A stretch of 64,000 nt of DNA from Octopus vulgaris. Lineage: Eukaryota. The first letter of the stretch is position 1. Every line of letters begins with the position of its first letter. A program made the position numbers and the translations under genes. This document shows, in pieces, positions 2,665 through 62,565 of this stretch. The notes under the pieces were generated by a model that did not search any database, was not told the DNA's origin, and saw nothing but the letters and a program-made list of their open reading frames with translations. The stretch is taken from positions 7,130,001 through 7,194,000 of the forward strand of contig OX597843.1 in assembly GCA_951406725.2 (NCBI GenBank), read 5' to 3'.

Positions 2665-3655
2665 CTAGCATTAAAGACCCGTCGTTGCCGGGTCATAGTG
2701 CTAGTGCATGTATATATATGTATATATATATGTGTACATATTACATGTCCATCCATATATATACATCTACACATAAAATGCAAAATACAAAGTTATATCT
2801 TGATATCGCTAGTGATAACAATACTCAAAATATATAACAGACTGGAATTGTTAGCCCGTCTCTTGTAATTTCGATCAATTGTATCTTGTCCTCTCTCTTG
2901 TATAGAAGTGTGGCTACAATCCAGCCTACCTCTACTTCTTGGGGGGGGGGGCATTATTAATTTTTTTCCAGCACGTCCTACATCCCAGATATAAAGGTAA
3001 AAATAAAATATTTCGAGTCGAGTACTCCCTTGCACGCTCCGTTGACTCGAACCTTGCTTCTATTGTGGCAAATTTTACCGCCTCTGATTAGATATCTTTC
3101 ATAGTCGCACCAAGACACTTTGTGTTCAAATCTTCTTTTTTCTCTACATTGTATACTTTATAGACAATAGTCTTTTCTTTAATTTAATTTTTTATTATCC
3201 ATCTGGACTATTCCATTTCTGAACGCTAATTTCATTTTTAATTTAATTCCCATTCATGTGAAACCACTTATTCAAGTTCAACTCATTGATGCAATTTTAT
3301 ACCAATTGCTATTTTTACTTTTGTTATGTTACAATTATATTATACTTTAGTTTGATTTTAATTATTACTTACTACATATAATTCAATTGTTATTATTATT
3401 TTTATTGTTAAAGTGAAAGTATCTGACATAAAATAGAGAAATATTTTTGTTTCACTTTTAACACGTAATACTGAAATAGTGGAGAAGATATGATATTGCT
3501 ATGATATTTTTTTTTGCCCATGAAACTACATGGACCCTAAGTAACGCATGTGTAAAATTTGAATGAAATTGGTTGTGTAGTTCTCAAGTTTTAGGGAAAC
3601 ACACAGACAGACAGACAGACAGACATTCTTAGTTTTATATATATATAGATATAGA
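2665..3655 (-). mobile_element. Non-autonomous Helitron-like element
   Basis: The minus strand begins A|TCTATATCTATATATATATAAAAC...(GTCT)n. It ends with hairpin GACCCG-gcaacga-CGGGTC followed by TTTAATG-CTAG|T (CTAG at 2665-2668). Joining these two ends into one element is inferred. Confidence 0.65.
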
Positions 3656-3714
3656 TGTTCCGGAGGCCTGGAATTGGAACAGCTGTAAAGGAACCTTGTC
3701 AATTTTTTAATTAA

Positions 3715-4968
3715 TCTATATCTATAAAACAGTCCTTGGACGAAAATTGTGTGCACATTTTGGTTTGACAGTTAATGGCGGCCAAACCGAGGCTAGGATC
3801 GAGCTGAAAATTGGCAGGGATACTAAATGCATGGTGAGGATGAGACCTGTGATGGGTAAAATTTGCAAGCTATAAAGATGTAGTTGCTATGGCAAAAAGA
3901 GTGATTTTTTATCGATTCAAGGGGGCACAGAGCTTCTCTAGGTTTGTGCAATTGGCTTTTAATGCCCAGCGGCATACACTGCAGGCTGTTGTGCTTAATA
4001 AACATACATTTGTTGCAAAATTCCGGCTAGGAAATGATATTTTATTGTGAAAAAACGAGTGCTTTTTGCCCTCATTTTCTATTTAATCTTTTTATAAAAG
4101 TGAAAGAATTTTGTCTATTTATTTCTACTGTCCACTTACGATGGTGATTCAGTTGACTAGGAAAACTATATGGGATGAATATCCAATACCAAACTATCTT
4201 AATCTACATATTGAAACTGCATTAAACTTTGGCAAGCTTACCTTTACCTATTCTGAGTTACTTGAAAGGTGATGTTCCCTTCCCTCTCTTCTGATTGTTG
4301 ATACATTTTTTTTTTACCTTTGATGCCGTTGTTTCATTTTAAGGATGCTTCTTTACCCAGCCATTATGATATTTCGACTGCTGTCCATTGTTTCAAATAG
4401 GTTTTAGCATTGTCATTCTAGCCTTTTTTAAACACTCACATATGATTCGTCCCAAAAAATCAACCTTTAAAGCTATACAAATCTTTCAGAAAGCTCCATA
4501 CCAATTTTACTTTATGCAGCATCCGCTGTTAGTTTATGTGCACACTATGTGGGAAGATAGAATAAAGTGACTTTTGTTAGCTTTTCTCTCCGGAAAAAAT
4601 AGCTCCCTTTGCTGTTGAAAAAAATAAACTCGCAGAGGGGAAGTTTCAACATCTTCCTTCAATTTTTTTACACCATTTATGTGGCTGTTTCTGACAAGAA
4701 ATTTCACTTTCATCTAAAACAACCATAATCTACTCCCAAAACACTTCAGTACCTCTACTTTACATTGCTTGCAAACTTACATGTTCTATGATAATCAAAG
4801 TGCAACGACCTCCACAATAACCAGCCTTCAATTTGATTTTCCGTTCCTAGGTTAATCGGAAACAGATTGCCATGCTTACACATAAACCTTCTCGGTAATT
4901 AAATTATTTTTGCGAAAAAATAACACGGAAGCAACCTAAACCGTCCGAAGGACAGGTGCGTTTGCTAG
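3715..4968 (+). mobile_element. Non-autonomous Helitron-like element
   Basis: Starts A|TCTATATCTATAAAAC at 3715. Ends with imperfect hairpin CCGTCC-GAA-GGACAGG followed by TGCGTTTG-CTAG|T (4965-4968). Confidence 0.6.
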
Positions 4969-4994
4969 TAAATAATACATATATACATATATAT

Positions 4995-5156
4995 ACAACG
5001 GGCTTCTTTCAGTTTCCATCTACCAAATTCACTCACAAGGCTTTGGTTGGCCCGAGGCTATGGTAGAAGACATTTGCCCAAAGTGCCATGCAGTGGGACT
5101 GAACCTAGAACCATGTGGTTGGTAAGCAAACTACTTACCACACATCCACTCCTGCA
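4995..5156 (-). mobile_element. tRNA-derived SINE family 1, 5' half
   Basis: Matches the head of the many other copies in the window (A-box-like TGGNTGTGTGG, B-box-like GGTTCAGTCCC). Confidence 0.85.
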
Positions 5157-6900: not shown

Positions 6901-8058
6901 CCCCCATAAAGAAAATGATTTTTTTCAATTGCATGGACTAAAATTGGAGGGGGATGGGATAATCTACATACAGTTAGATTTTAACAGTTATTTTTTCAAA
7001 GCTATGATGGAAATGACAAAGAAGAATATTCGGCATATTTTGCTTTAAGAGTTCAATAAAGGCAACAACAAAATTGAAAGTGCGAGGAATATTAATGCAG
7101 TGTATGGGGATCTGACAATAAGCATAAGCCAGTGTCAATGGTGGTTCCAGAAATTCTGAGTTGGAAACTATAGCCTAGAAGATGAGCCTCATCCTGGATG
7201 ATCTGTAGAGCTTGATGAGGATGTCTGGCAAACCCTGGTGGAACAAAATACCATCATAACTGTTGAGGAACTAGCAGAGAAGCTTGGATTTAGTAATTCA
7301 ACCATTCATTGGCACCTGCATGCAATCGGAAAAGTTGGCAAATTAGGTCAATGGGTTCACCACAAACCTTCCATGTTTAATTGCATGCAGAGAGTGAATG
7401 TGAGCCCTTCTTTGGTGCCACGTCTTATGAATGAACCCTTTTTGGACTAAATAGTGACTGGTGATAGGAAATGGGTTCTCAATAAAAATGTCAAGCGTCA
7501 AAGACAGTGGGTAGATCTTCACCCATGTAAGGTATATGAAAGGTTTAGTCCACTTTGAACTTTTAAACCTAAACCAAAGAATAACAAAGGAGATCTACTG
7601 TGAGCAGCTTGAGCGGCTTACATCACTGCTAGAAGGAAAACAACCATCTTTGGTTTCAAGGCGAAAGGTGTTCTTCCATCAGGATAATGTTCGGCCACAT
7701 ACAGTGAGGATGACATTCCAAAGGCCGGAGCAGTTTGAATGGGAGACGATGCACCACCCGCCATATTTGCTGGACATGGCCCCATCTGATTATCATTTAT
7801 TGTACAGTCATCAAAATCATTTGAATGGAATAAATATGAATTCTGTAGATGAGATTAGAACACTACTACAGGAGTATTTTTCATCACAGGCAAGTGAATA
7901 CTGGAAGAGGGGCCTTGCAAGTCTACCAGATAGATGGAAGAGTATTGCAGAAAATGAAGGAGAGTGTATTTTAGATGAGAAAAAAGGACTTTGTTTATTT
8001 TAATTTTGAAAAATAAGAGGTATAATAAAACCGCATTATTTATGGGATGACTGAAAAA
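6901..8058 (+). mobile_element. Mariner (DD34D) transposon, decayed
   Basis: Transposase 7004-8003 with stops and frameshifts: MMEMTKKNIRHILL*EF..., WVHHKP (WVPHEL-like), IVTGD, FHQDNVRPH and YLLDMAPSDYHL (YSPDLAPSD-like). Right end CGCATTATTTATGGGATGAC is TIR-like; the left TIR is degenerate. Confidence 0.9.
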
Positions 8059-11164: not shown

Positions 11165-11430
11165 GCAAATATATAAATACAAGCTTGGGAGGAGAAAAAC
11201 AGAAAACACGAAAAGAATAAGTTAAAACAGTTGTAAATGTAGAATTTGGCACCAACGATGAGGGGGTGTGTAGGTAGGGAGGTTGGGAGCGGTAGAAGCT
11301 GGTGTCGCAGTGTGTTGATGGTGGTGTCGGTGGTGGTGACAGTGGTGGTGATGGCAGTGAGGCATAGGTACGTCGAATGGTGAAGCACACATATATGTGT
11401 GCGTGTGTGTATTTAAAAAAAATTTTTTTC

Positions 11431-11488
11431 TCTAGTTTCAGCTCAGAGCTGCGGCCATGCTGATGCACCGCCATTTTGTGCTACACTG
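11431..11488 (-). mobile_element. CR1-like LINE 3' terminal fragment
   Basis: Reverse complement matches 62400-62446 (AATGGCGGTGC...AGCATGGCCGCAGCTC-GAGCTGAAACTAGA). Confidence 0.8.
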
Positions 11489-13436: not shown

Positions 13437-13920
13437 TAGATAGATAGATAGATAGATATATAGATATATAGATAGATAGACAGACAGACAGACAATATAT
13501 GTGTATATTTATATACAGATAGACAGATAGAAACACATACACACATACGCTGGAGTATCCCAGCATGGCCACAGCCTTAGAGCTGAAACATAAAAGAATA
13601 CATACATTCATACTCACAGACATACACACATACATACATACATACATACATACATACATACATACATACATACATACATACATACATACACACACACATG
13701 CATGCATACTTACATGCATGCATACATACATACACACACATGTATACATACACACACATACATACATAGATACACACACATACACACACGCAATACATAC
13801 ACATATATACATACATGCATACATACATATGCGCATGGAAATATAAACACATTAGTAACTATATACATAAATACATAGCCATATATGATATACATGTATG
13901 TATGTATGTTCATGTATGTC

Positions 13921-15957: not shown

Positions 15958-16350
15958 CTTTCTATCTCTCATTGTCTGTCTGTCTAACCTTATGGCTAAG
16001 ATCAAGGTCTAATAACTACTCTTTAAAGTTTATATATAAATAGGAGTGGCTGTGTGGTAAGTAGCTTGCTTACCAACCACATGGTTCCGTGTTCAGTCCT
16101 ACTGTATGGCACCTTGGGCAAGTGTCTTCTACTATAGTCTCGGGCCGACCAAAGCCTTGTGAATGGATTTGGTAGACGGAAACTGAAAGAAGCCTGCTGT
16201 ATGTATATGTATGTATATATATATATATATTGTTATATTTCGGAATGGTCATTTTGCCAGTTTAGCCAATAAAAACCCACGCACTATATATTTGGTGTTA
16301 CTTTGCTTCAGCGTTATTTATTTTTTACATTAATCTTAATCTTATTTCGG

Positions 16351-16390
16351 CCAGAGTTCTTTCATCACACTCCTGTGACCCCATCAGTGG
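16351..16390 (-). ncRNA. Minimal hammerhead motif (A9G variant), left-arm copy
   Basis: Minus strand CCA-CTGATGG-G-GTCACA-GGAG-TGTGAT-GAAA-GAAC-TC-TGG. Confidence 0.6.
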
Positions 16391-16782
16391 TCCTTTGCTT
16401 TCTTCTTTCTTATTTGTGTGTCCCTCCTTACTAACTGTCAGCCATTTTGTAGTTTGTATTTCTATTGTACGTGTCTTCATTTGTGCGTGCGTGTACCTCT
16501 ATGTGTGTCTATGTTTAGTTAGTGTGTGTGGGGGAGGGGGGAATGCCTGTAAACACATGAACAAAATAAAAATAAACAAAAACAAAAACAAATTACACAA
16601 ACATATATAAACAGGAGATACAAATATTGCAGGCATTCCCCCCTCCCCCACTAACTAAACATAGACACACATAGAGGTACACGCATGCACAAATGAAGAC
16701 ACGTACAATAGAAATACAAACTACAAAATGGCTGACAGTTAGTAAGGAGGGACACACAAATAAGAAAGAAGAAAGCAAAGGA

Positions 16783-16822
16783 CCACTGATGGGGTCACAG
16801 GAGTGTGACGAAAGGACTCTGG
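16783..16822 (+). ncRNA. Minimal hammerhead motif (A9G variant), right-arm copy
   Basis: Stem I CCA/TGG; CTGATGG-G; 6-bp stem II GTCACA-GGAG-TGTGAC; GAAA-GGAC-TC; predicted cut after C16819. Confidence 0.65.
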
Positions 16823-17534
16823 CCGAAATAAGATTAAGATTAATGTAAAAAATGCCCCCCAGCATGGCCACAGCTCAAGAGCTGAAACTGGAAAACATAA
16901 ACATAAACACTGAAGCAAAGTAACACCAAATATATATTGTGTGTTTGACCATTCCTAAATACAACAATATCTGTTTGAACAAACGATTTCACATAAAAAA
17001 TCTTGCAAAACAGATATATATATATGTATGTATGTGTGTATATGTGTTTGTGTGTCTGTGTTTGTCCCCCCAACATTGTTTGATAACCGATGCTGGTGTG
17101 TTTAGCAGTTCGGCAAAAAAATCCGATAGAATAAGTACCAGGCTTACAAAGAATAAGTCTTGGGGTCGATTTGCTCGACTAAAGGCAGTGCTGCATCATG
17201 GCCACAGTCAGATGACTGAAACAAGTAAAAGGGTAAAAGAGAGTAAAGAGTAATACACACACACACACACACACACTTTTTCTCTCTGTTCTCACTGACT
17301 GCCCCCCCCCCCCCAACACAATATTATTCTCTAAACATGTTCTGTTACCCATCAACGTGTTGCTAGACTTTCTGCAGCTCCGCCTGATTATCAAAGAATC
17401 TGTCAGGATTCCTTGCTACTCTCTATGATCTAAGTTCAAATCCTACTTAGGTCAGTTGCGTCTTTTATCCCTCAGGGGGATGAAATAACGAGGCTGTTCT
17501 CCCCCTGCAAAACAATTTCCGATCATTGAAAGTA

Positions 17535-23040: not shown

Positions 23041-23292
23041 ACACACACACACTCACACACACACACACTCACTCACTCTTTGTTTCAATCATTTGACTGC
23101 GGCCATGCTGGAGTGCCGCCTTTTGCCGAGCAAATCGACCCCAGTACTTATTCTTTGTAAGCCTAGTACTTATTCTATTGGCTTCCTTGCCGAACCGCTA
23201 AGTTAAGGGGACGTAAACACACCAGCATCGGTTGTCAAGCGATGTTGGGGGGGGGGACAAACACAGACACACAAACATACACACACACACAT

Positions 23293-23332: not shown

Positions 23333-23568
23333 CTTTCTTCAACCTTTTCCTTCCGGTCTTTCAAAATGTGACCTCGTGTGTACCGTTGGCGATTTTTTTT
23401 CCTCTGTCTTCCCTTCTCTGGATCTTTCCTTCTCCTATGTTTCCGACGAAGAGCTCCGCTCGAAACGTTAAACCCTCCTTCTTTCCTTCTTTCCTGAGCG
23501 TCCAATAATACTATACTTGTTCCACGTCCTCGCGTTGTTGTGTTTTTTTTGTGCTTTCTTGTTTGGAT

Positions 23569-23572
<4 letters not shown>
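23332..23572 (+). mobile_element. Penelope-like pseudo-LTR fragment, copy 1
   Basis: Almost identical to 42912-43136, contains a hammerhead, and ends GGATTAAC|TATATA. Confidence 0.75.
23439..23473 (+). ncRNA. Minimal type I hammerhead ribozyme (U4C variant)
   Basis: Stem I GTTT/AAAC; CCGACGA-A; stem II GAGC-TCC-GCTC; GAAA-CG-TT with palindromic ACGT in place of stem III; predicted cut after 23469. Confidence 0.75.
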
Positions 23573-23617
<45 letters not shown>

Positions 23618-23869
23618 CTGTGATGGTAAAATCAACAAAGATCTAGTAAGAGAGAAATATTATTTAATAGACACAAAATATGTTTTATACCTCAAACATA
23701 TTCATTATGCACAAACCACATATCATAACGAACTATGAATAGATTTGAGGTATTTCTCAACGTATGAAACTATTAGTAGCTCATAAAAAGCATGTATTGT
23801 GTCTTTTAAATTATATATACAAAGAACATTGGGATCTATTCCATCTCGATGACATTTTTTCATTGATTT

Positions 23870-24290
23870 TCTGTTTTTAACTAAACAGTTTGAAACTTCG
23901 AATACTTGTATAATTTCTCGCGTAGAGCACGGTTTCTGGCTAACTTGAAGTGTTTTTTTTTTTACCAGTTCTCGACTGGCTTTATGTGGATCTTTCTCAA
24001 TGACGGTCTTTAATTGACCGTCATCGATGACAGATGGGTTTCCACAACTCTCACGATCTTCAAGGCTCAGATCTCCACTGTGAAATCGTGTAAACTATTC
24101 TCGAGCTGACCACTCACTGGTCATTTCCTCACCAAATGTTTCGTTGATATCGCGAGCAGTTTCAGCTGCTTTACATCATTTTTTGAAGTTGAATAGCAAA
24201 ATTGCTCAAATGTCGCACTTTGACAGTTCCCTTTCAGATGATTGTAACAACGGTGAAAAAAATATTAATGTTAATTTTTCGATGCATTTG
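23870..24290 (-). mobile_element. Mariner transposase N-terminal remnant plus subterminal sequence
   Basis: Minus strand ELSKCDI*AILLFNFKK*CKAAETARDINETFGEE...RFHSGDLSLED. Segment 23871-23909 is similar to the reverse complement of 141-180. Confidence 0.75.
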
Positions 24291-27053: not shown

Positions 27054-30000
27054 CATACATACATACATACATACATGCACACATACATGCATACATACGT
27101 ACATACACACATACATACATGCACACATACATGCATACATACGTACATACATAAACAAATACACACACAGACATACATACATACATGTATCCATACATAC
27201 GTACATAAATACATATACATGCATACATAAACACACATACATGCATACATACATACATAAACATACATACATACAAACATACATACATACATGCATGCAT
27301 ACATAACATAGACATACATACATACATACATACATACATAATACACATACAGACATAAACATACATGCATACATACATACATAAACAACTACACACTCAC
27401 ATACATACATAAAATACACATACATACATACGTACATACATACACATACATAAACACACACATACATAAACAAATACACACACATATACATAGATATATA
27501 CATACATGCATACATACGTAACACACACATACATATATACACACACACATACATACGTACATACATACACATGCATACATGAACATACATGCACATACAT
27601 ATATATATACATACATGCATTAACATACATGCATATATACATAAACAAATACACACATACATACATAACATACGCATACATACATACACATACATACATG
27701 CATATATACATGCCTGCATACATACATAACATATACATATATACATACACATACATACCTACATACATACATACGTACATACATACATACATACGTACAC
27801 GTGCATACATAAACATATATGCATACATATATAAAGAAATACATACACACAAACAGGCATGCATACGTACATACGTATGTACATACATAAATACATACAT
27901 AAATATATAAACAAATACACACATACATGGATACATACTTACATACATACGTACACATACATATGTACTTACATAGGTACGTACATACATAAATACATAC
28001 ACATACATATGTACATGCATACATACATACATACATGCATATATACATACACACATACATACATACACCCATACATACATACATACATGCATGCATAACG
28101 TACACATACATACATACACATACATACGTAGATACATACGTACATACTTAGGTACATACATACATAAACATATACTTACACACATACATACGTACATACA
28201 TTACGTACACATACATAGATATATACATATACGTACATACATACATACATACATACATAACTTATACATACATACACATTCATGCAAACATACATACGTA
28301 CATACATACACACACATACATACATATATACATACATACGTACATACATACATATATAAACATACATGCATACATAATACATACATACATACATACTTAA
28401 ACAAATACACACACACATACATGCATACATGCATACATACATAACATACACAGACATACATACATGCATACATACACAATATACATATACATACTTACAT
28501 ACACATACATACGTACGTACATACATACGTACATACATACATACACATACATACATACATACACATACATACATACATAAAAACATAAACATACATAAAC
28601 AAATACATAAAAACATATATACATACATACACATATATATGTACTTATATACATAAACATACATGCATACATACGTACATACATAAACAAATACACACAC
28701 ATATATACATACATACTTACATACGTACATACAAATACATACGTACATACATACATACATACATAAACAAATACATACATACATACATATATTTATACAT
28801 GCATATATATACATGCATACATATATACATAAATACACACACATACATACATGCATACATATATACATATATGCATGCATAAATACATACATAAAATACA
28901 CATACATACATACACATACATATGTACATATATACATACATACATACACATACATATGTACATATATACATACATACATACGCATATATATATAAACATA
29001 CATGCATACATACATACATACCATACACATACATACATACACATACGTACATACATATATACGTACATACATACATACATGCATACATTGACATACATAC
29101 AGATACATATGTACATACATACATACACATACATACTTAAACATACATGCATACATACATACCATACACATACATACATACATACACATACATACGTACA
29201 TACATATATACGTGCATACATACATACATACGTACATACATACATACATATATAAACATACATGCATACATACATACATACATACATAACATACACATAC
29301 CTACAGATACATACTTAAACATACATGCATACATACATACATATATACATACATAAACTAGTACATACACACATACATACATACGTAAACAAATTCAGAC
29401 ACATACATACATACATACATACATACATACATACATACATACATACATACATACATACATACACATATATACATAAACATGCATGCATACATACATAAAT
29501 ACATACATAACCAAATACATACACACATACATATATACCTACATACATACATAAACATACATGCATGCATAATACATACATAAACAAATACACACACACA
29601 TACATACATACATTCATACCTACCTACATACATCCATGCATACATAACATACACATACATACATACGTACATACACATACATACATAAACATACTTACAT
29701 ACATACACACATACATTACATACCCATACATACATACATACATACACATACATACGTACATACATACACACGTACATACATACATACGTGCATACATACA
29801 TACGTATATACATACGTACATACATAAACATACATACATACATAACATACACATGCATACATACACATACATACGTACATACATACAGAAACATAATGCA
29901 TACATACATATGTACATACATACATACATAAACAAATACTATACATACATATGTACATACATACATACATACACATACATACATAAGCATACATGCATAC

Positions 30001-30467
30001 ATAAATACATACATAAACAAATACATACACACATACATACATACATATATATATATACATACATACATAAACATACATGCAGGCATACATACATACGTAA
30101 ACAAATACACAGACACATACATACATGCATACATATATACATGCATACATACACATACATACATACATACATACACATACATACATGCATACATACATAC
30201 ATACACATACGTACGTACATACATACATAGGTACATACATAAACAAATGCATACACATACATGCATACATAAACAAATACATACACACGTACATACCTAA
30301 CATACACATACATGCATACATACACATACATACGTACATACATACATACATACCTACATACATACATACATACATACCTACATACATACATACATACGTA
30401 CGTATATACATACATACATACATACATACATACATACATACATACATACATACATACATACATACAT
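27054..30467. repeat. 3.4-kb degenerate (TACA)n satellite-like array
   Basis: Continuous CATA/TACA units with recurring variants (ACATAAACAAATACAC, TACGTAC, TGCATAC); source of the MYVC and HTYI ORFs. Confidence 0.95.
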
Positions 30468-31179: not shown

Positions 31180-31615
31180 AGGCGCAGGAGTGGTTGTGTG
31201 GTAAGTAGCTTCCTTACCAACCACATGGTTCCGAGTTCAGTCCCACTGCGTGGCACCTTGGGCAAGAGTCTTCTACTATAGTCTCGGGCCAACCAAAGCT
31301 ATGTGAGTGGATATGGTAGACGGAAACTGAAAGAAGCCTGTCGTATATATGTATACACACACACACACACACATATATATATATGTATGTGTGTGTATAT
31401 GTTTGTGTGTCTGTGCTTGTCCCCCAACTTCGCTTGACAACCGATGCTAGTGTGTTTGCGTTCTCGTCATATAGCGGTTCGGCAAAAGAGACCGATAGAA
31501 TAAGTACTACGCTTACAAAGAATATATCCTGTGGTCGATTGGCTCGACTAAAGGCGGTGCTGCAGCATAGCCAGCCGCAATCAAATGATTGAAACAAGTA
31601 AAAGAGTAAAAGAGA
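31180..31615 (+). mobile_element. SINE family 1, full length
   Basis: GGCGCAGGAGTGGTTGTGTGG head through the GAAACAAGTAAAAGAG tail. Confidence 0.9.
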
Positions 31616-34050: not shown

Positions 34051-35246
34051 TTATTTATTTTATTTTATCTAGTTTCAGCTCACGAGCTGTGGCCATGCTG
34101 GGGCACCGCCATTCGGTGGTGCTACATGATTTTACTTCACGAATGCTTTTTAGCAATTGCCATTTGGTGCATGAGAGAGTTTGATGCAGCTGCTCTCATC
34201 TGCACCTCCTGCCGTGAAGTTGGTTCATCTGGGACACCTGACAAGAAAAGGTCCAGCTTTATTTTAAAGACACCTACATCCACCCCATGCAGGTCTCTCA
34301 GGTTCTTCGGGAGGATATTGAAGAGCTGTGAACCTCTGAAGCCCAGGCTATCACAGTATCTTGTCCTACATCTTGATGGCAAATTTGGAGTCCTTGGCAC
34401 TATGCAGTGGCGCCCAGTTCTAGCATTTGTGTAACTCTCGATGCCAAAGTTTAGGACAAGTCTTTCTAGGATCTTCCAGATGTATATTATGGCATATCTT
34501 TCTCGCCTACGCTCTAAGGAATAGAGTCTTAATCTCTTGAGTCTTTCCCAATAGCTTATATACTGCACAGAGGCTATCTTCTTCGTGTAGCTTCGTTGGA
34601 TCGCCTCAAGTCCTGTGATTAACTTGACACTGGATGGTGACCATAGCTGAGAGCAATAGTCAAAGTGGCTTAGGACATGTGTCCTCCAGAGGACCATCAT
34701 GGTTTCCTGGTCTCTTGTTCTAAAAGCTCAAAGAATCCATCCGGTCAGCCGCTTACATTTCATTGCCAATTTAGCAACATGCACATGAAAGGTTGCATCA
34801 TTACACATGTAAATACCCAGGTCTCGTACTGATTGTGCCTCTGGGATTGCAATCCATCCAGGTCCAGTGTATTTATTGGGTATTGCATTTAGTTTTGCAT
34901 GCTGATAGCATAAAGCTTGAAACTTTTCAGCATTGAACTGCATGCTATTCTTTTCAGCCCACTTGTATATTTTGTCCAGCTCACATTGCAGGTGCATAGT
35001 GTCTTCAGGGTTCTGTATTACCTGTGAAACTTTTGTATCATCTGCATAACTTGTGATCGTGGCTCTCTGCGTGGCTGAGGGCATGTCTGAGAGGGCCACT
35101 ATGAACAGTAGTGGTCCCAAAACAGTGCCTTGCGGAACACCGCTCACTATTTGCGTGTTAATGGAAGTGGCCCCATTTGCTACTACCACCTAACTTCTAT
35201 CCTTCAGAAAGTCATGAAGCCATTCTCCCAAATTTCCAACTATGCC
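34051..35246 (-). mobile_element. CR1-clade LINE, 5'-truncated (RT C-terminal half, frameshifted)
   Basis: SGVPQGTVLGPLLF, SYADDTK, RDLGI, HFDYCSQLWSP and LYSLERRRER; 3' stem-loop and (ATAAA)n tail. Confidence 0.95.
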
Positions 35247-35775: not shown

Positions 35776-36039
35776 GTATATGTATGCATGTATGTATGTA
35801 TATGAGTGTGTCTTTTATCTTTGACTTCTTTCAGTCATTAATCTGTGGCCATTCTGGGGTACAGCCTTGAAGAATTTTAGACAAATCATATCCACTCAGC
35901 ATACTTATGCTTTAAAATCTGGCACATATTCCATCGCTTCTTTTGCCAAACTGCTAGGTTCTGTGGACGTAAAGACGCCAACACTGTTTATCAAGCTGTG
36001 GTGGTGGTAGACAAAGATTGATACAATGACATATCTCCC

Positions 36040-36085
<46 letters not shown>

Positions 36086-36571
36086 CTCTTTCTCTCTCTC
36101 TCTCTCTCTCTCTCGTTGCTCACAGGTGACCATCGTCCATCTTTCTTTCCCTCACGCGATCAGCTTTGTTTTCCTTCTGAACTGTCCTAAGGACTGGACG
36201 TCTACCATCATTCTTCTGTTTTTTTCTTCTCTTTACATAGAAAACGTTTCTCCAGCGTTCGCTAGCTTGACCTCGTTCTGGTCTATCGATCATCCAGTTT
36301 TGTTTTCGTTCGGTTTCCTTGTATGTCTCCATTGTCCTGTTTTTGTTCCCAGCTTTGACCCGCCATAAAATCCAAAATTTTATTTTGGTAATTCTGGGAG
36401 CAAGTATCTTTGAATGCTAGAAATGAGGCGTAGTTAGACAGTTGATAACTGACGAAGGATCGTTCTTTATGTTACTTGTCCTCCATTTGTTTCGTCGTTT
36501 GCGTATTGAACTTGTTTGCTTTCGTATTTCATGTTGTTTACTGCTTAGTGACGTTGTGTACCCATATATGC

Positions 36572-36639
<68 letters not shown>

Positions 36640-36806
36640 CATATATATATATATTTATACACACATACATGCATATATATATTATATATATACACATATT
36701 TGCATATATTTATGCTATATGTATGTGTATATATATATAAACACATATACACATATGTATGTATTTATATATACATATATACACACATATATGCATATAT
36801 ATATAT

Positions 36807-36871
<65 letters not shown>

Positions 36872-37134
36872 ATAACAATGGAATTACAAAGGATACATCA
36901 CAAACAATTAAAAACTGTTCATGAATCTATCTATGGTCAAGCATGCTATCAAATAAAAAGAGAGTGTTTATAATTATGATGAAGATTGTAAGAATTTTTG
37001 AAACTATTGTAATTAGGATTTCATCATAATTATAAACACTGTCTCTCTTTATATATATATGTGTGTGTCTGTGTGTGTGTGTGTGTGTACATATATGTGT
37101 ATATATGTGAGTGTGTGTTTATAAATTTGATTGT

Positions 37135-40371: not shown

Positions 40372-40799
40372 AGAGAAACACACACACAAACACACGCACA
40401 CATACACACATAATCACACGCGCATGCACATACATATAGACACACACACACGCATACACACTATTACACATACGTACGCACTCACATACACGCAAATACA
40501 CACATATACACCCACATTCATATATCTTTTATGTTTTACTTGCTTTAGTCATTGGATTACGGCCATGCTGGGGCACCGCCTTGAAAAAGTTTTCGTCGAG
40601 CAAATCGACACAAGCACTTTATATATTTTTTAAAACCTGACACTTATTTTATCGGTCTAATTTTGCCGAACTGCTAGCCGTGTGAACGTAAACACACCAA
40701 CACTGATTCTCAAGTGGTCACGGAGGACTGACAGACAGACTCACACACACACATGGTTGTGTGGTAAGAAGCTTGCTTTCCAACTACAGCGTAGCAGCT

Positions 40800-42911: not shown

Positions 42912-42912
<1 letters not shown>

Positions 42913-43136
42913 TTCCTTCCGGTCTTTCAAAATGTGACCTCGTGTGTACCGTTGGCGATTTTTTTCCTCTGTCTTCCCTTCTCTGGATCTTTCCTTCTCC
43001 TATGTTTCCGACGAAGAGCTCCGCTAGAAACGTTAAACCCTCCTTCTTTCCTTCTTTCCTGAGCGTCCAATAATACTATACTTGTTCCACGTCCTCGCGT
43101 TGTTGTGTTTTTTTGTGCTTTCTTGTTTGGATTAAC
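42912..43136 (+). mobile_element. Penelope-like pseudo-LTR fragment, copy 2, with hammerhead at 43004-43038
   Basis: Near-identical to 23346-23572; C>A at 43026 breaks the stem II closing pair; (TA)n on both sides. Confidence 0.75.
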
Positions 43137-44352: not shown

Positions 44353-44768
44353 GTCTCGCTATCTATATATCTGTCTGTCTGAAGCGGTTTCGGAAGATAA
44401 ATATACGTTGGTATCACTATCAAATTTATCGTTTGTATAGATGAGAAGTTTGCATCCCAACCACATGGTTCCAGGTTCATTCACACTGTGTGGAATCTTG
44501 GGAAAGTGTCTTCTACTATAGCCTCGGGCTGACCAAAGCCTTGTGAGTGGATTTGGTTGACGGAAACTGAAAGAAGCCCATCGTCTTTTTGATGCGACTC
44601 TCTACTCTATACTGTTTTCTTCCTCCTTCTCTAATTCCCTTTTTCTCTCCCTCTCTCCTTCACCGTTTTCTATCTGTCTCTCTCTCCCCTCTTTCTCTTT
44701 CTCTCTTTCGTTGTTTCATACGTGACCATCGTTCATCTATCTTTTCCTCACGTAACCATTTTTCTCTT

Positions 44769-45803: not shown

Positions 45804-45941
45804 GTTATATATATATATAGTAGGCTGTTCCATTGAATCGGATCGACTGGAACCCTTGTCGACGTAACCGATGGAGTAACAGTATGTATGTATGTATGTA
45901 TGTATGTATGTATGTATGTATGTATGTATGTATGTATGTAT

Positions 45942-46009: not shown

Positions 46010-46330
46010 ACTGTTACTCCATTGGTTACGTCGACAAGGGTTCCAGTCGATCCGATTCAACGGAACAGTCTACTCGTGAACTTAGCCCGCAAGTGGCTGA
46101 GTATTCCACAGGCTCACGTACCCTTAACGTAGTTCTCAGCATGACACAGAATGTGACATTGCTGGCTCCCCTTCTGAGTTACAGCTACAACTCATTTTTG
46201 CCAGCTGAGTAGACTGGAGTAGACTGAGCAAATGAAGTGTCTCGCTCGAGGACACGGCGTGCCGCTGGGAATCGAACGCACGACTTTATGATCGTGATCC
46301 AAATGTCTTAACCACTGAGTTTCGCGCCTA
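46010..46330 (-). mobile_element. SINE family 3, near full length
   Basis: Head CTCAGTGGTTAAG...GTTCGATTCCC through tail GTAACC.ATGGAGTAACAG. Confidence 0.8.
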
Positions 46331-56172: not shown

Positions 56173-56853
56173 GGTGTTTTAGTTCACGTGTGATCTAAAC
56201 GACTAGGTACGCTAGGAAAGTGCTGTAACAAATTACTAGGTTAAAGGTTTAAGCCGGGTCGGTAGTTATGGAGCCATTGCAGATTTCCGATGCAGCGGAT
56301 ATATAATTATTAAAGAGAACAACAAACGTTAAGTCACCAAATGTATATATGGCTTGAGAGGTTTGCCTTGCTTTAACGTTTGTTGTTCTCTTTAACAATT
56401 AATGAGTGTATATTACTTCTGGCGTTCTGTCTACTCCTCGCAACTGAATAATTGATAATCCGACATATCACCAACATCCACCGTTATAATATGTATGTGT
56501 GTGTGTATGTTTGTGCGTGTGCTTGACAGCCGATGTTGGTGTGTTTACGTCTCCTTAATATAGCGGTTCGGTAAAAGATCGATAGAATAAGTACCAGGCT
56601 TACAAAGAATTAGTCTAAGTCCTGGGGTCGATTACTTCGACTAAACGGCGGTGCTCCAGCATGGACGCAGTCAAAATGACTGAAATGAATTACAAAAAAA
56701 AAGAGTATATAAGTATACATGCACACTTGACCAGTTTCAAAATCATGTTTCGTGGAGCCGTGTCGGAAAGTGTATTTTTTCTCGCCATATTTATAAAAAT
56801 CGTTTGTTGTTACAGAAAGAACGTAGTTCAGAATGCTGTCAGTTAACGCACCG

Positions 56854-58222: not shown

Positions 58223-58402
58223 TATGCTTCAGTCATTTGACTATGGCCATGCTGGAGCAGCGCCTTTAGTCGAGCAAATCGCCCCCATGATTTATTCTTT
58301 GTAAGCCTAGTACTTATTCTATCGGTCTCTTTTGCCAAATCGCTAAGTTACGGGGACGTAAACACACCAGCATCGGTTGTCAAGCGTAAACAAGCCAACA
58401 CC

Positions 58403-59880: not shown

Positions 59881-60367
59881 GTATGTGTAAGTGCTTGCAT
59901 GTTTGTGTTTGTCCTTCCGCCTTCGCTTGACAACCGATGTTGGTGTGTTTACGTCACCGTAACATAGCGGTTCGGCAAAAGAGACCGAGACAATAAGTAC
60001 CAGGCTTATAAAGAATAAGTACTAAGGTCGGTTTGTTCGACTAAAGGCGGTGCTCCAGCATGGCCGCAGTCAAATTGACTGAAACAAAAGAATATATATT
60101 TATATATATATATATGAAATTTTGAATTTAGTTTACGGACTCCCGATAGTACCTTTGTGGGCCACCAGGGGCCCGCGAACTACAGGTTGGGAACCGCTAA
60201 CTCTACCTCATTTAAGCATAAGAGTAGGTGACAACTGCGAAACTCATTTCAAAATGGTTCTCTCGGCTTGCACGTCTGTTGATGACGGCTTCACCGTTCT
60301 ACCTTCGTCTTTTGTTTATTTCCGTAAACCTGCCTTCGTCTTTTGTCTATTTTCATAAAGCTTCCCG

Positions 60368-62565
<2,198 letters not shown>

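Follow-up and report, generated by a model that had tools for sequence, protein, structure and literature searches.

A SINE of Octopus vulgaris is split inside its internal TA-rich microsatellite by a palindromic insert of 784 bp, which we consider likely to be a 5'-truncated and now dead copy of a Penelope-like retroelement (PLE) of the endonuclease-bearing type, formed by the steps proposed below. The insert lies in a 64,000-nucleotide stretch (the window; positions are counted from its first letter) that is rich in microsatellites and contains many SINE copies together with LINE and DDE transposon fragments. The insert is noncoding, and no RT or GIY-YIG sequence is attached to it. Because this defining ORF is absent, membership of the PLEs is a structural argument, and on structure it appears likely. 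The locus is a fresh instance of a published PLE insertion form, and nesting of this kind has already been described.

The host SINE extends from 16042 to about 17253 on the + strand. Its 5' half (16042-16199) differs from the majority of the window copies at 6 of 153 positions and is followed by the left part of the microsatellite (16200-16230), which ends in the TA run that forms the target site. The right part of the microsatellite (17014-17044) leads into the 3' half (17045-17253), which ends in short repeats and has a 15-bp deletion of its own. In a profile search the 5' half matched model positions 2-153 at 16043-16194 and the 3' half matched model positions 1-201 at 17045-17230. The two matches are on the same strand and colinear, with zero overlap and 850 bp between them; in the 13 intact SINE copies of the window the halves are separated by 9-140 bp of microsatellite. 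Marks of subfamily B are found at 0 of 2 positions in the 5' half and 1 of 5 in the 3' half, the one being a CpG-type change. The rare marks of the two halves (the 5' mark occurs in 3 of 16 other copies, the 3' mark in 2 of 13) are both shared with the copies at 31186 and 53495. Since the halves are colinear, do not overlap, and carry the same subfamily marks, they represent one split SINE rather than two insertions. The sequence-only reading had proposed a single split SINE and had named halves of different subfamilies, or a substantial overlap, as the observations that would speak against it; we looked for both and found neither. Its claim that the insert entered the internal (TA)n tract is likewise upheld, as TA runs border both junctions (16214-16230 and 17014-17025).

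Across the window the SINE profile matched the 5' half 21 times and the 3' half 20 times, not counting five further matches to the terminal stem-loop only. Thirteen of the 15 paired SINEs are uninterrupted; the focal pair has the 850-bp gap, and in one old pair the gap is 1107 bp. A further six 5' pieces and five 3' pieces have no partner. ARAGORN detected no tRNA gene in the 5' half of the focal SINE, which, from its A- and B-box-like motifs, we take to be a tRNA-type head; the SINE as a whole presumably resembles an Octopus family.

The insert (16230-17013) consists of two inverted arms, a spacer, and a one-sided extension. The left arm (16230-16552, 323 bp, - strand) is a shorter, inverted, 5'-truncated copy of a putative pseudo-LTR (pLTR) and has no tail. 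The right arm (16627 to about 16969, + strand) bears a LINE 3' end and has lost 24 bp near 16944. About 287 bp can be aligned between the arms, which are oriented head to head. The DNA fold has a z-score of -54 relative to 20 shuffles. Among long inverted pairs in the masked window, these arms alone are near 98% identity; apart from one 62-bp pair, the four others within 1.5 kb consist of opposed SINE copies. The unpaired spacer (16553-16626, 74 bp, + strand) is rich in A, as is the + strand of the right arm; its AT skew is +0.66, while the skew is +0.45 in the right arm and -0.40 in the left. This strand bias suggests that the spacer is a longer 5' part of the right copy. The extension (16970-17013, about 45 bp, + strand) lies at the right end with no left counterpart; it folds into an imperfect hairpin, at -12 kcal/mol together with some flank. 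It is a candidate PLE tail that would derive from the element itself; it could also be a separate mini-hairpin element, but the tail reading fits better. Neither a second copy of the extension nor any further copy of the family of the insert was found in the 64-kb window, and no target-site duplication is readable inside the TA run. A 17-base motif had bacterial and archaeal matches at 38 loci where about 69 are expected by chance, the longest among the ten best being 28 bases, and these were dismissed as chance matches. The earlier description of an insert of about 780 bp with inverted arms of about 320 bp agrees with these measurements; it had omitted the extension at the right end, the 24-bp right-arm deletion, and a 6-bp indel.

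Palindromes are a known read artefact, and a fold-back error of sequencing or assembly could in principle produce an inverted pair of this kind. Such an origin is extremely improbable here, given that the arms differ by 9-11 substitutions, the 6-bp indel, the 24-bp indel that reflects the right-arm deletion, and a 54-bp insertion, and that the flanks are complementary halves of a SINE.

Each arm contains a hammerhead-like motif. The right motif (16780-16824, + strand) has a stem I of 3+2 bp, the core CUGAUG-G-G, a 6-bp stem II, GAAA, a 4-nucleotide loop 3 (GGAC), and UC, with a predicted cut site after 16819. In the left motif (16349-16393, - strand) stem II is closed by G-U and loop 3 is GAAC. 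With C3 at 16786 (+) and 16387 (-), the cores are 399 bp apart and both motifs face outward, a topology that the sequence-only reading had described correctly; since the motifs are on opposite strands, a single transcript carries only one in sense. A strict descriptor scan of the window returned these two motifs only. A relaxed scan returned three in the window (the third, at 23443, belongs to another family) compared with two in 10 simulated windows, and both of the simulated matches had a stem II shorter than 6 bp. Rfam gave no match at the gathering threshold and 23 matches at E values up to 10, none of them a hammerhead; these were mostly hairpin-shaped miRNA models and were rejected as reflecting palindrome shape only.

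Minimum free energy folds yield helices I and II, with a closing G10.1-C11.1 pair in the right arm and G-U in the left arm. In both arms, position 9 and the extra base are both G, so that the cores depart from the consensus CUGANGA(H)...GAAA...NUH, and for this reason we call the motifs hammerhead-like rather than hammerheads. The A9G change previously noted in both arms is thus real, but it is not the single core change, the extra base being a second departure from CUGANGAH. Loop 3 is non-palindromic in both motifs, and co-folding of two copies gave no dimeric hammerhead. The core is degenerate, and both motifs are probably inactive here. Literature titles and abstracts contained no description of the A9G core variant of the insert or of an octopod family of this type, catalogues of PLE hammerhead variants and repeat libraries lying outside that comparison; three sequence motifs of the window occur nowhere in the literature searched, and the extracts of PMC11014351 contain nothing on hammerhead position 9.

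A non-autonomous DNA transposon of the MITE or foldback type, with long terminal inverted repeats, a TA target, and a hammerhead likeness that is incidental or captured, would also have the long inverted arms, the short spacer, the flanking TA, and the lack of coding sequence. We regard this as very improbable. In such elements symmetrical terminal inverted repeats reach both ends, whereas here the ends are asymmetrical, with the 45-bp extension on one side; the strand bias of the spacer is that of one arm, and the motif, which has PLE-specific hammerhead features, is rare in the controls.

A possible PLE ORF start is provided by an ATG near the outer end of the left arm (16250-16252, - strand), which has been lost from the right arm at the 24-bp deletion. 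Its frame, read in the right arm, is free of stops through the 45-bp extension, as it also is in 29% of shuffles. No homologue of the putative ORF start was found in three protein searches, one of which covered 1.84 billion proteins; the best Atlas score was 0.78 and pointed to no family. When the (spurious) arm translations were used as a proxy for position 9 in other copies, five candidates were obtained, none at an E value up to 1.

The 54-bp insertion in the right arm (16854 to about 16907, + strand) is the 3'-terminal fragment of an RT-encoding LINE, comprising a stem-loop and ATAAA-type repeats. It aligned best to the 3' ends of the LINE copies at 34054-34103, 60927, and 62411 (scores of 79, 66, and 66), and aligned to two SINE tails with scores of 46 and 42. 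These results substantiate the earlier claim of a LINE 3' tail of about 50 bp confined to the right arm. No target duplication is visible around the fragment, which joins its target via short A/T-rich words common to both. One copy of the parent LINE family carries an RT domain (Pfam RVT_1), the LINE RT being located at 34731-35189, and the octopod Argonauta hians provides the best named match (60% identity) of the window LINE protein; from its C-terminal motifs we take this LINE to resemble the CR1/L2/Jockey group. The 3' stem-loops of the SINE and of the LINE have sequence in common (16854-16907, 34054-34115, 60916-60963, 62400-62447, 11428-11475, 13559-13589, and the SINE 3' ends), which suggests that this LINE group mobilizes the SINE. 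Further isolated LINE-end fragments occur at 11428 and 13559, and 5'-truncated LINE copies lie within very long (TA)n arrays at 60834-60963 and 61500-62447, so that other retroelements are found in TA tracts too.

Divergence between the arms is uneven. Inside the position of the LINE fragment, an inner block that ends at the LINE junction is identical at 223 of 227 bp (4 substitutions), whereas the outer arms beyond the fragment differ at 5 of 58 or 7 of 60 positions, depending on which of two alignments is used. The contrast has p values of 0.019 and 0.002 for the two alignments, and of 0.059 and 0.005 when CpG changes are left out, and it rests on 4 versus 5-7 substitutions. Halving the distance between the arms gives 0.046-0.063 for the outer parts and 0.009 for the inner block; the distance of the SINE from the majority of copies is 0.062, an overestimate since subfamilies are mixed. 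The halved outer-arm distance is not above the SINE distance and is therefore consistent with a SINE that preceded the insert.

With respect to the order of insertion read from the letters alone, the first step is secure: the SINE is older than the insert, since the insert splits it. That the LINE fragment came last would be the simplest reading of its presence in one arm. The further claim that A9G predates the arm duplication is not sustained. The core lies within the inner block, which is more alike between the arms than are the outer parts, so the shared G9 is of no independent use for dating; a family trait, a defect of the donor, or a later change copied across could each account for it. 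The contrast between inner and outer parts suggests either that the inner block was homogenized from arm to arm after the duplication or that two templates were used. The simplest account would be that the insertion is old and that its inner block was homogenized later, with the LINE fragment acting as a barrier; its rival is a mosaic of two templates.

In that rival the insert also originates from a PLE, and its arms derive from two donor RNAs or a mosaic, the right donor already having the LINE fragment and the deletion. The LINE end would then not be the last event, and the outer differences would need no later conversion. The greater divergence of the outer arms accords with this proposal, as does the cutting and extension of both strands in vitro in the extracts of PMC11167929. 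Two donors should nonetheless differ in the inner block too, yet this is 98% identical exactly up to the LINE junction, and a template switch would be needed at that very junction; we consider a two-donor origin unlikely. A different order of events, in which a single PLE end was inserted first and the inverted arm was added later by local fold-back break repair, independently of retrotransposition, is improbable. It would explain the near-identity of the inner block and one mismatch at a distance of two bases from the inner junction, a trace expected of imperfect fold-back priming, but the left arm continues past the position of the LINE fragment without containing it, and its end abuts the TA run directly, as expected of a pLTR without a tail. 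In addition, inverted copies are a routine product of PLEs according to extracts of PMC8557442 and PMC3846280.

The reading we prefer, a two-armed PLE insertion with later homogenization, draws on published features of PLEs, given here as they appear in extracts of the sources. PLE copies are described with an inverted 5'-truncated copy and a 30-40-bp tail that is often at one end only, and they are biased toward microsatellites including (TA)n, which hides target duplications (PMC8557442). Head-to-head inverted pLTRs are the commonest form, and the first ORF residues lie in the pLTR and are continued by the tail (PMC3846280). Dual minimal PLE hammerheads occur on opposite strands, 100-700 bp apart, with a long helix II, an extra base after position 9, G10.1-C11.1, and the consensus CUGANGAH (PMC4209133). 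In vitro, a PLE protein cuts and extends both strands in AT-rich DNA, and two internal RT start sites bound the tail (PMC11167929). PLEs make up 6.83% of the O. vulgaris genome (PMC13282606 supplement). The insert has the head-to-head inverted 5'-truncated copy, the one-end candidate tail, the hammerhead-type motif in the putative pLTR, and the TA target. We count against the PLE reading the tail of about 45 bp rather than 30-40 bp, the degenerate core, the non-palindromic loop 3, and the silence of Rfam, together with the missing RT and GIY-YIG sequence, the ORF start without homologues, the single copy in the window, and the unreadable target-site duplication.

The SINE with its internal TA-rich tract was in place first. 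On the basis of the published biochemistry, a PLE protein would then have nicked the TA tract and reverse-transcribed the 3' end of the element from both sides of the break; alternatively, the 3' end would have been copied once and then folded back. The product would be two truncated head-to-head copies with their 3' ends and hammerheads outward. Use of a distal start site on one side and a proximal one on the other would leave the tail of about 45 bp at the right end only. The LINE 3' end now present in an A/T-rich spot of the right arm, where 24 bp have also been lost, would have entered after that. Finally, and with less confidence, the 227-bp inner block may have been homogenized between the arms, up to the LINE fragment.

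Of what the sequence-only reading said on landing pads, entry into a (TA)n tract is supported, whereas a special role for SINE microsatellites is not established. (TA)4+ covers 8.6% of the window, and TA runs inside paired SINEs account for 10 of its 246 tracts and 212 of 5503 bp (about 4%); most paired SINEs, as given above, are uninterrupted. Two of the three hammerhead-bearing insertions adjoin a SINE microsatellite, compared with about 11% expected (14 of 128 merged TA tracts; P = 0.033), and P is 0.21 when the focal locus, chosen for this property, is left out. The third motif belongs to a second hammerhead-bearing PLE-like family with copies at 23335-23572 and 42912-43136 (98.7% identical over 227 bp). 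Both end flush on (TA)n. One copy has a TA run on one side and, on the other, the microsatellite of an orphan SINE 3' half; no SINE half was found next to the remaining copy, which is situated in a TA tract. Both have C for U4, and copy 2 also lacks the C that closes stem II. Loop 3 in this family is CG, a palindrome, and two copies pair through this region when co-folded. The insertion sites are consistent with general (TA)n targeting, as already published. A bolder proposal appears rather unlikely to us: that octopod PLE families have family-wide noncanonical hammerhead cores missed by standard descriptors (G9 with a G extra base; C for U4), that the locus is a fossil of two-ended priming followed by arm conversion halted by the LINE, and that SINE TA tracts steer PLE landing.

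Several other features of the window were recorded. The old SINE halves 1107 bp apart (pair 37281/36025) are on the same strand and enclose a mixed filler (36026-37132) of long TA runs and a unique block of about 450 bp, which includes a CUGACGA-A word without a matching GAAA arm; this may be a further split SINE in which a PLE end has decayed. Among the unpaired pieces, two full 5' halves (5001-5152 and 44433-44578) and all five 3' halves (23079-23277, 40534-40751, 56496-56690, 58224-58401, and 59893-60088) end or start at the internal microsatellite, which suggests that it is a hot spot of truncation or breakage. A unique block of about 1.3 kb (about 3600-4970, - strand) starts in the microsatellite of the 5' half at 5001-5152, and we presume from its ends that it resembles a Helitron-type element. 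A 62-bp inverted pair of another repeat (45820-45881 and 46012-46073; 95% identical, the right copy being longer) surrounds (TATG)n(TA)n. Tc1/mariner-type transposase fragments are present at 944-1351 and 7515-8003 (Pfam DDE_3 and Transposase_1) and, recognized by eye only, at 23723-24094. A 3.4-kb (CATA)n-type array (27054-30467) is the longest simple repeat among the matches listed.

The locus serves well in teaching, as a clear case of how PLEs are known to insert and of how nested transposons are dated; an unlabeled palindrome can here be re-read as a probable PLE stump. Its import would be larger if SINE-borne TA tracts take more PLE insertions genome-wide than other TA tracts, or if altered hammerhead cores are family-wide and still cleave. 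If inner arms are routinely converted, divergence between arms would be unreliable for dating.

Comparison with known systems, again as described in extracts of the sources, places the insert closest to the structural features of PLEs. Non-LTR retrozymes (bioRxiv 10.64898/2026.07.22.740005) are, like the insert, noncoding and of probable PLE ancestry with a type I hammerhead, but they are direct tandem repeats, whereas the insert is an inverted pair and so falls outside them. The Naiad PLEs of Octopus (PMC8557442 supplement) share the (TA)n preference and differ in being without canonical hammerheads. Five short insert motifs were sought in the extracts of that supplement; one of them, a 9-mer, occurred three times, the two listed places being unrelated, and the other four were absent, as were two further motifs. 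The minimal type I hammerheads of metazoan PLEs (Cervera and de la Pena 2014, PMC4209133) resemble the insert motifs in type I topology, short helix I, one-pair helix III, 6-bp helix II with G10.1-C11.1 (right arm), extra base after position 9, and pairing on opposite strands; the insert differs in having G for A9 and for the non-G extra base and in its non-palindromic loop 3. In several Adineta vaga PLE copies the inner junction is palindromic, whereas the insert has the unpaired 74-bp spacer. In the Poseidon element of Anolis carolinensis (PMC11167929), compared by mechanism and not by sequence, the ORF starts at hammerhead stem II, whereas the candidate ATG of the insert is about 100 bp downstream of the motif; the mechanism of that element would yield the anatomy of the insert. 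Relative to endonuclease-bearing PLEs in general (Penelope/Poseidon, Neptune, and Nematis; PMC8557442 and PMC3846280), the insert lacks the ORF and has a tail of about 45 bp rather than 30-40 bp, and it is like them in its inverted 5'-truncated copy, one-sided tail, hammerhead-like motif within the repeat, and simple AT-rich target; a possible ORF start lies at the 3' end of the repeat.
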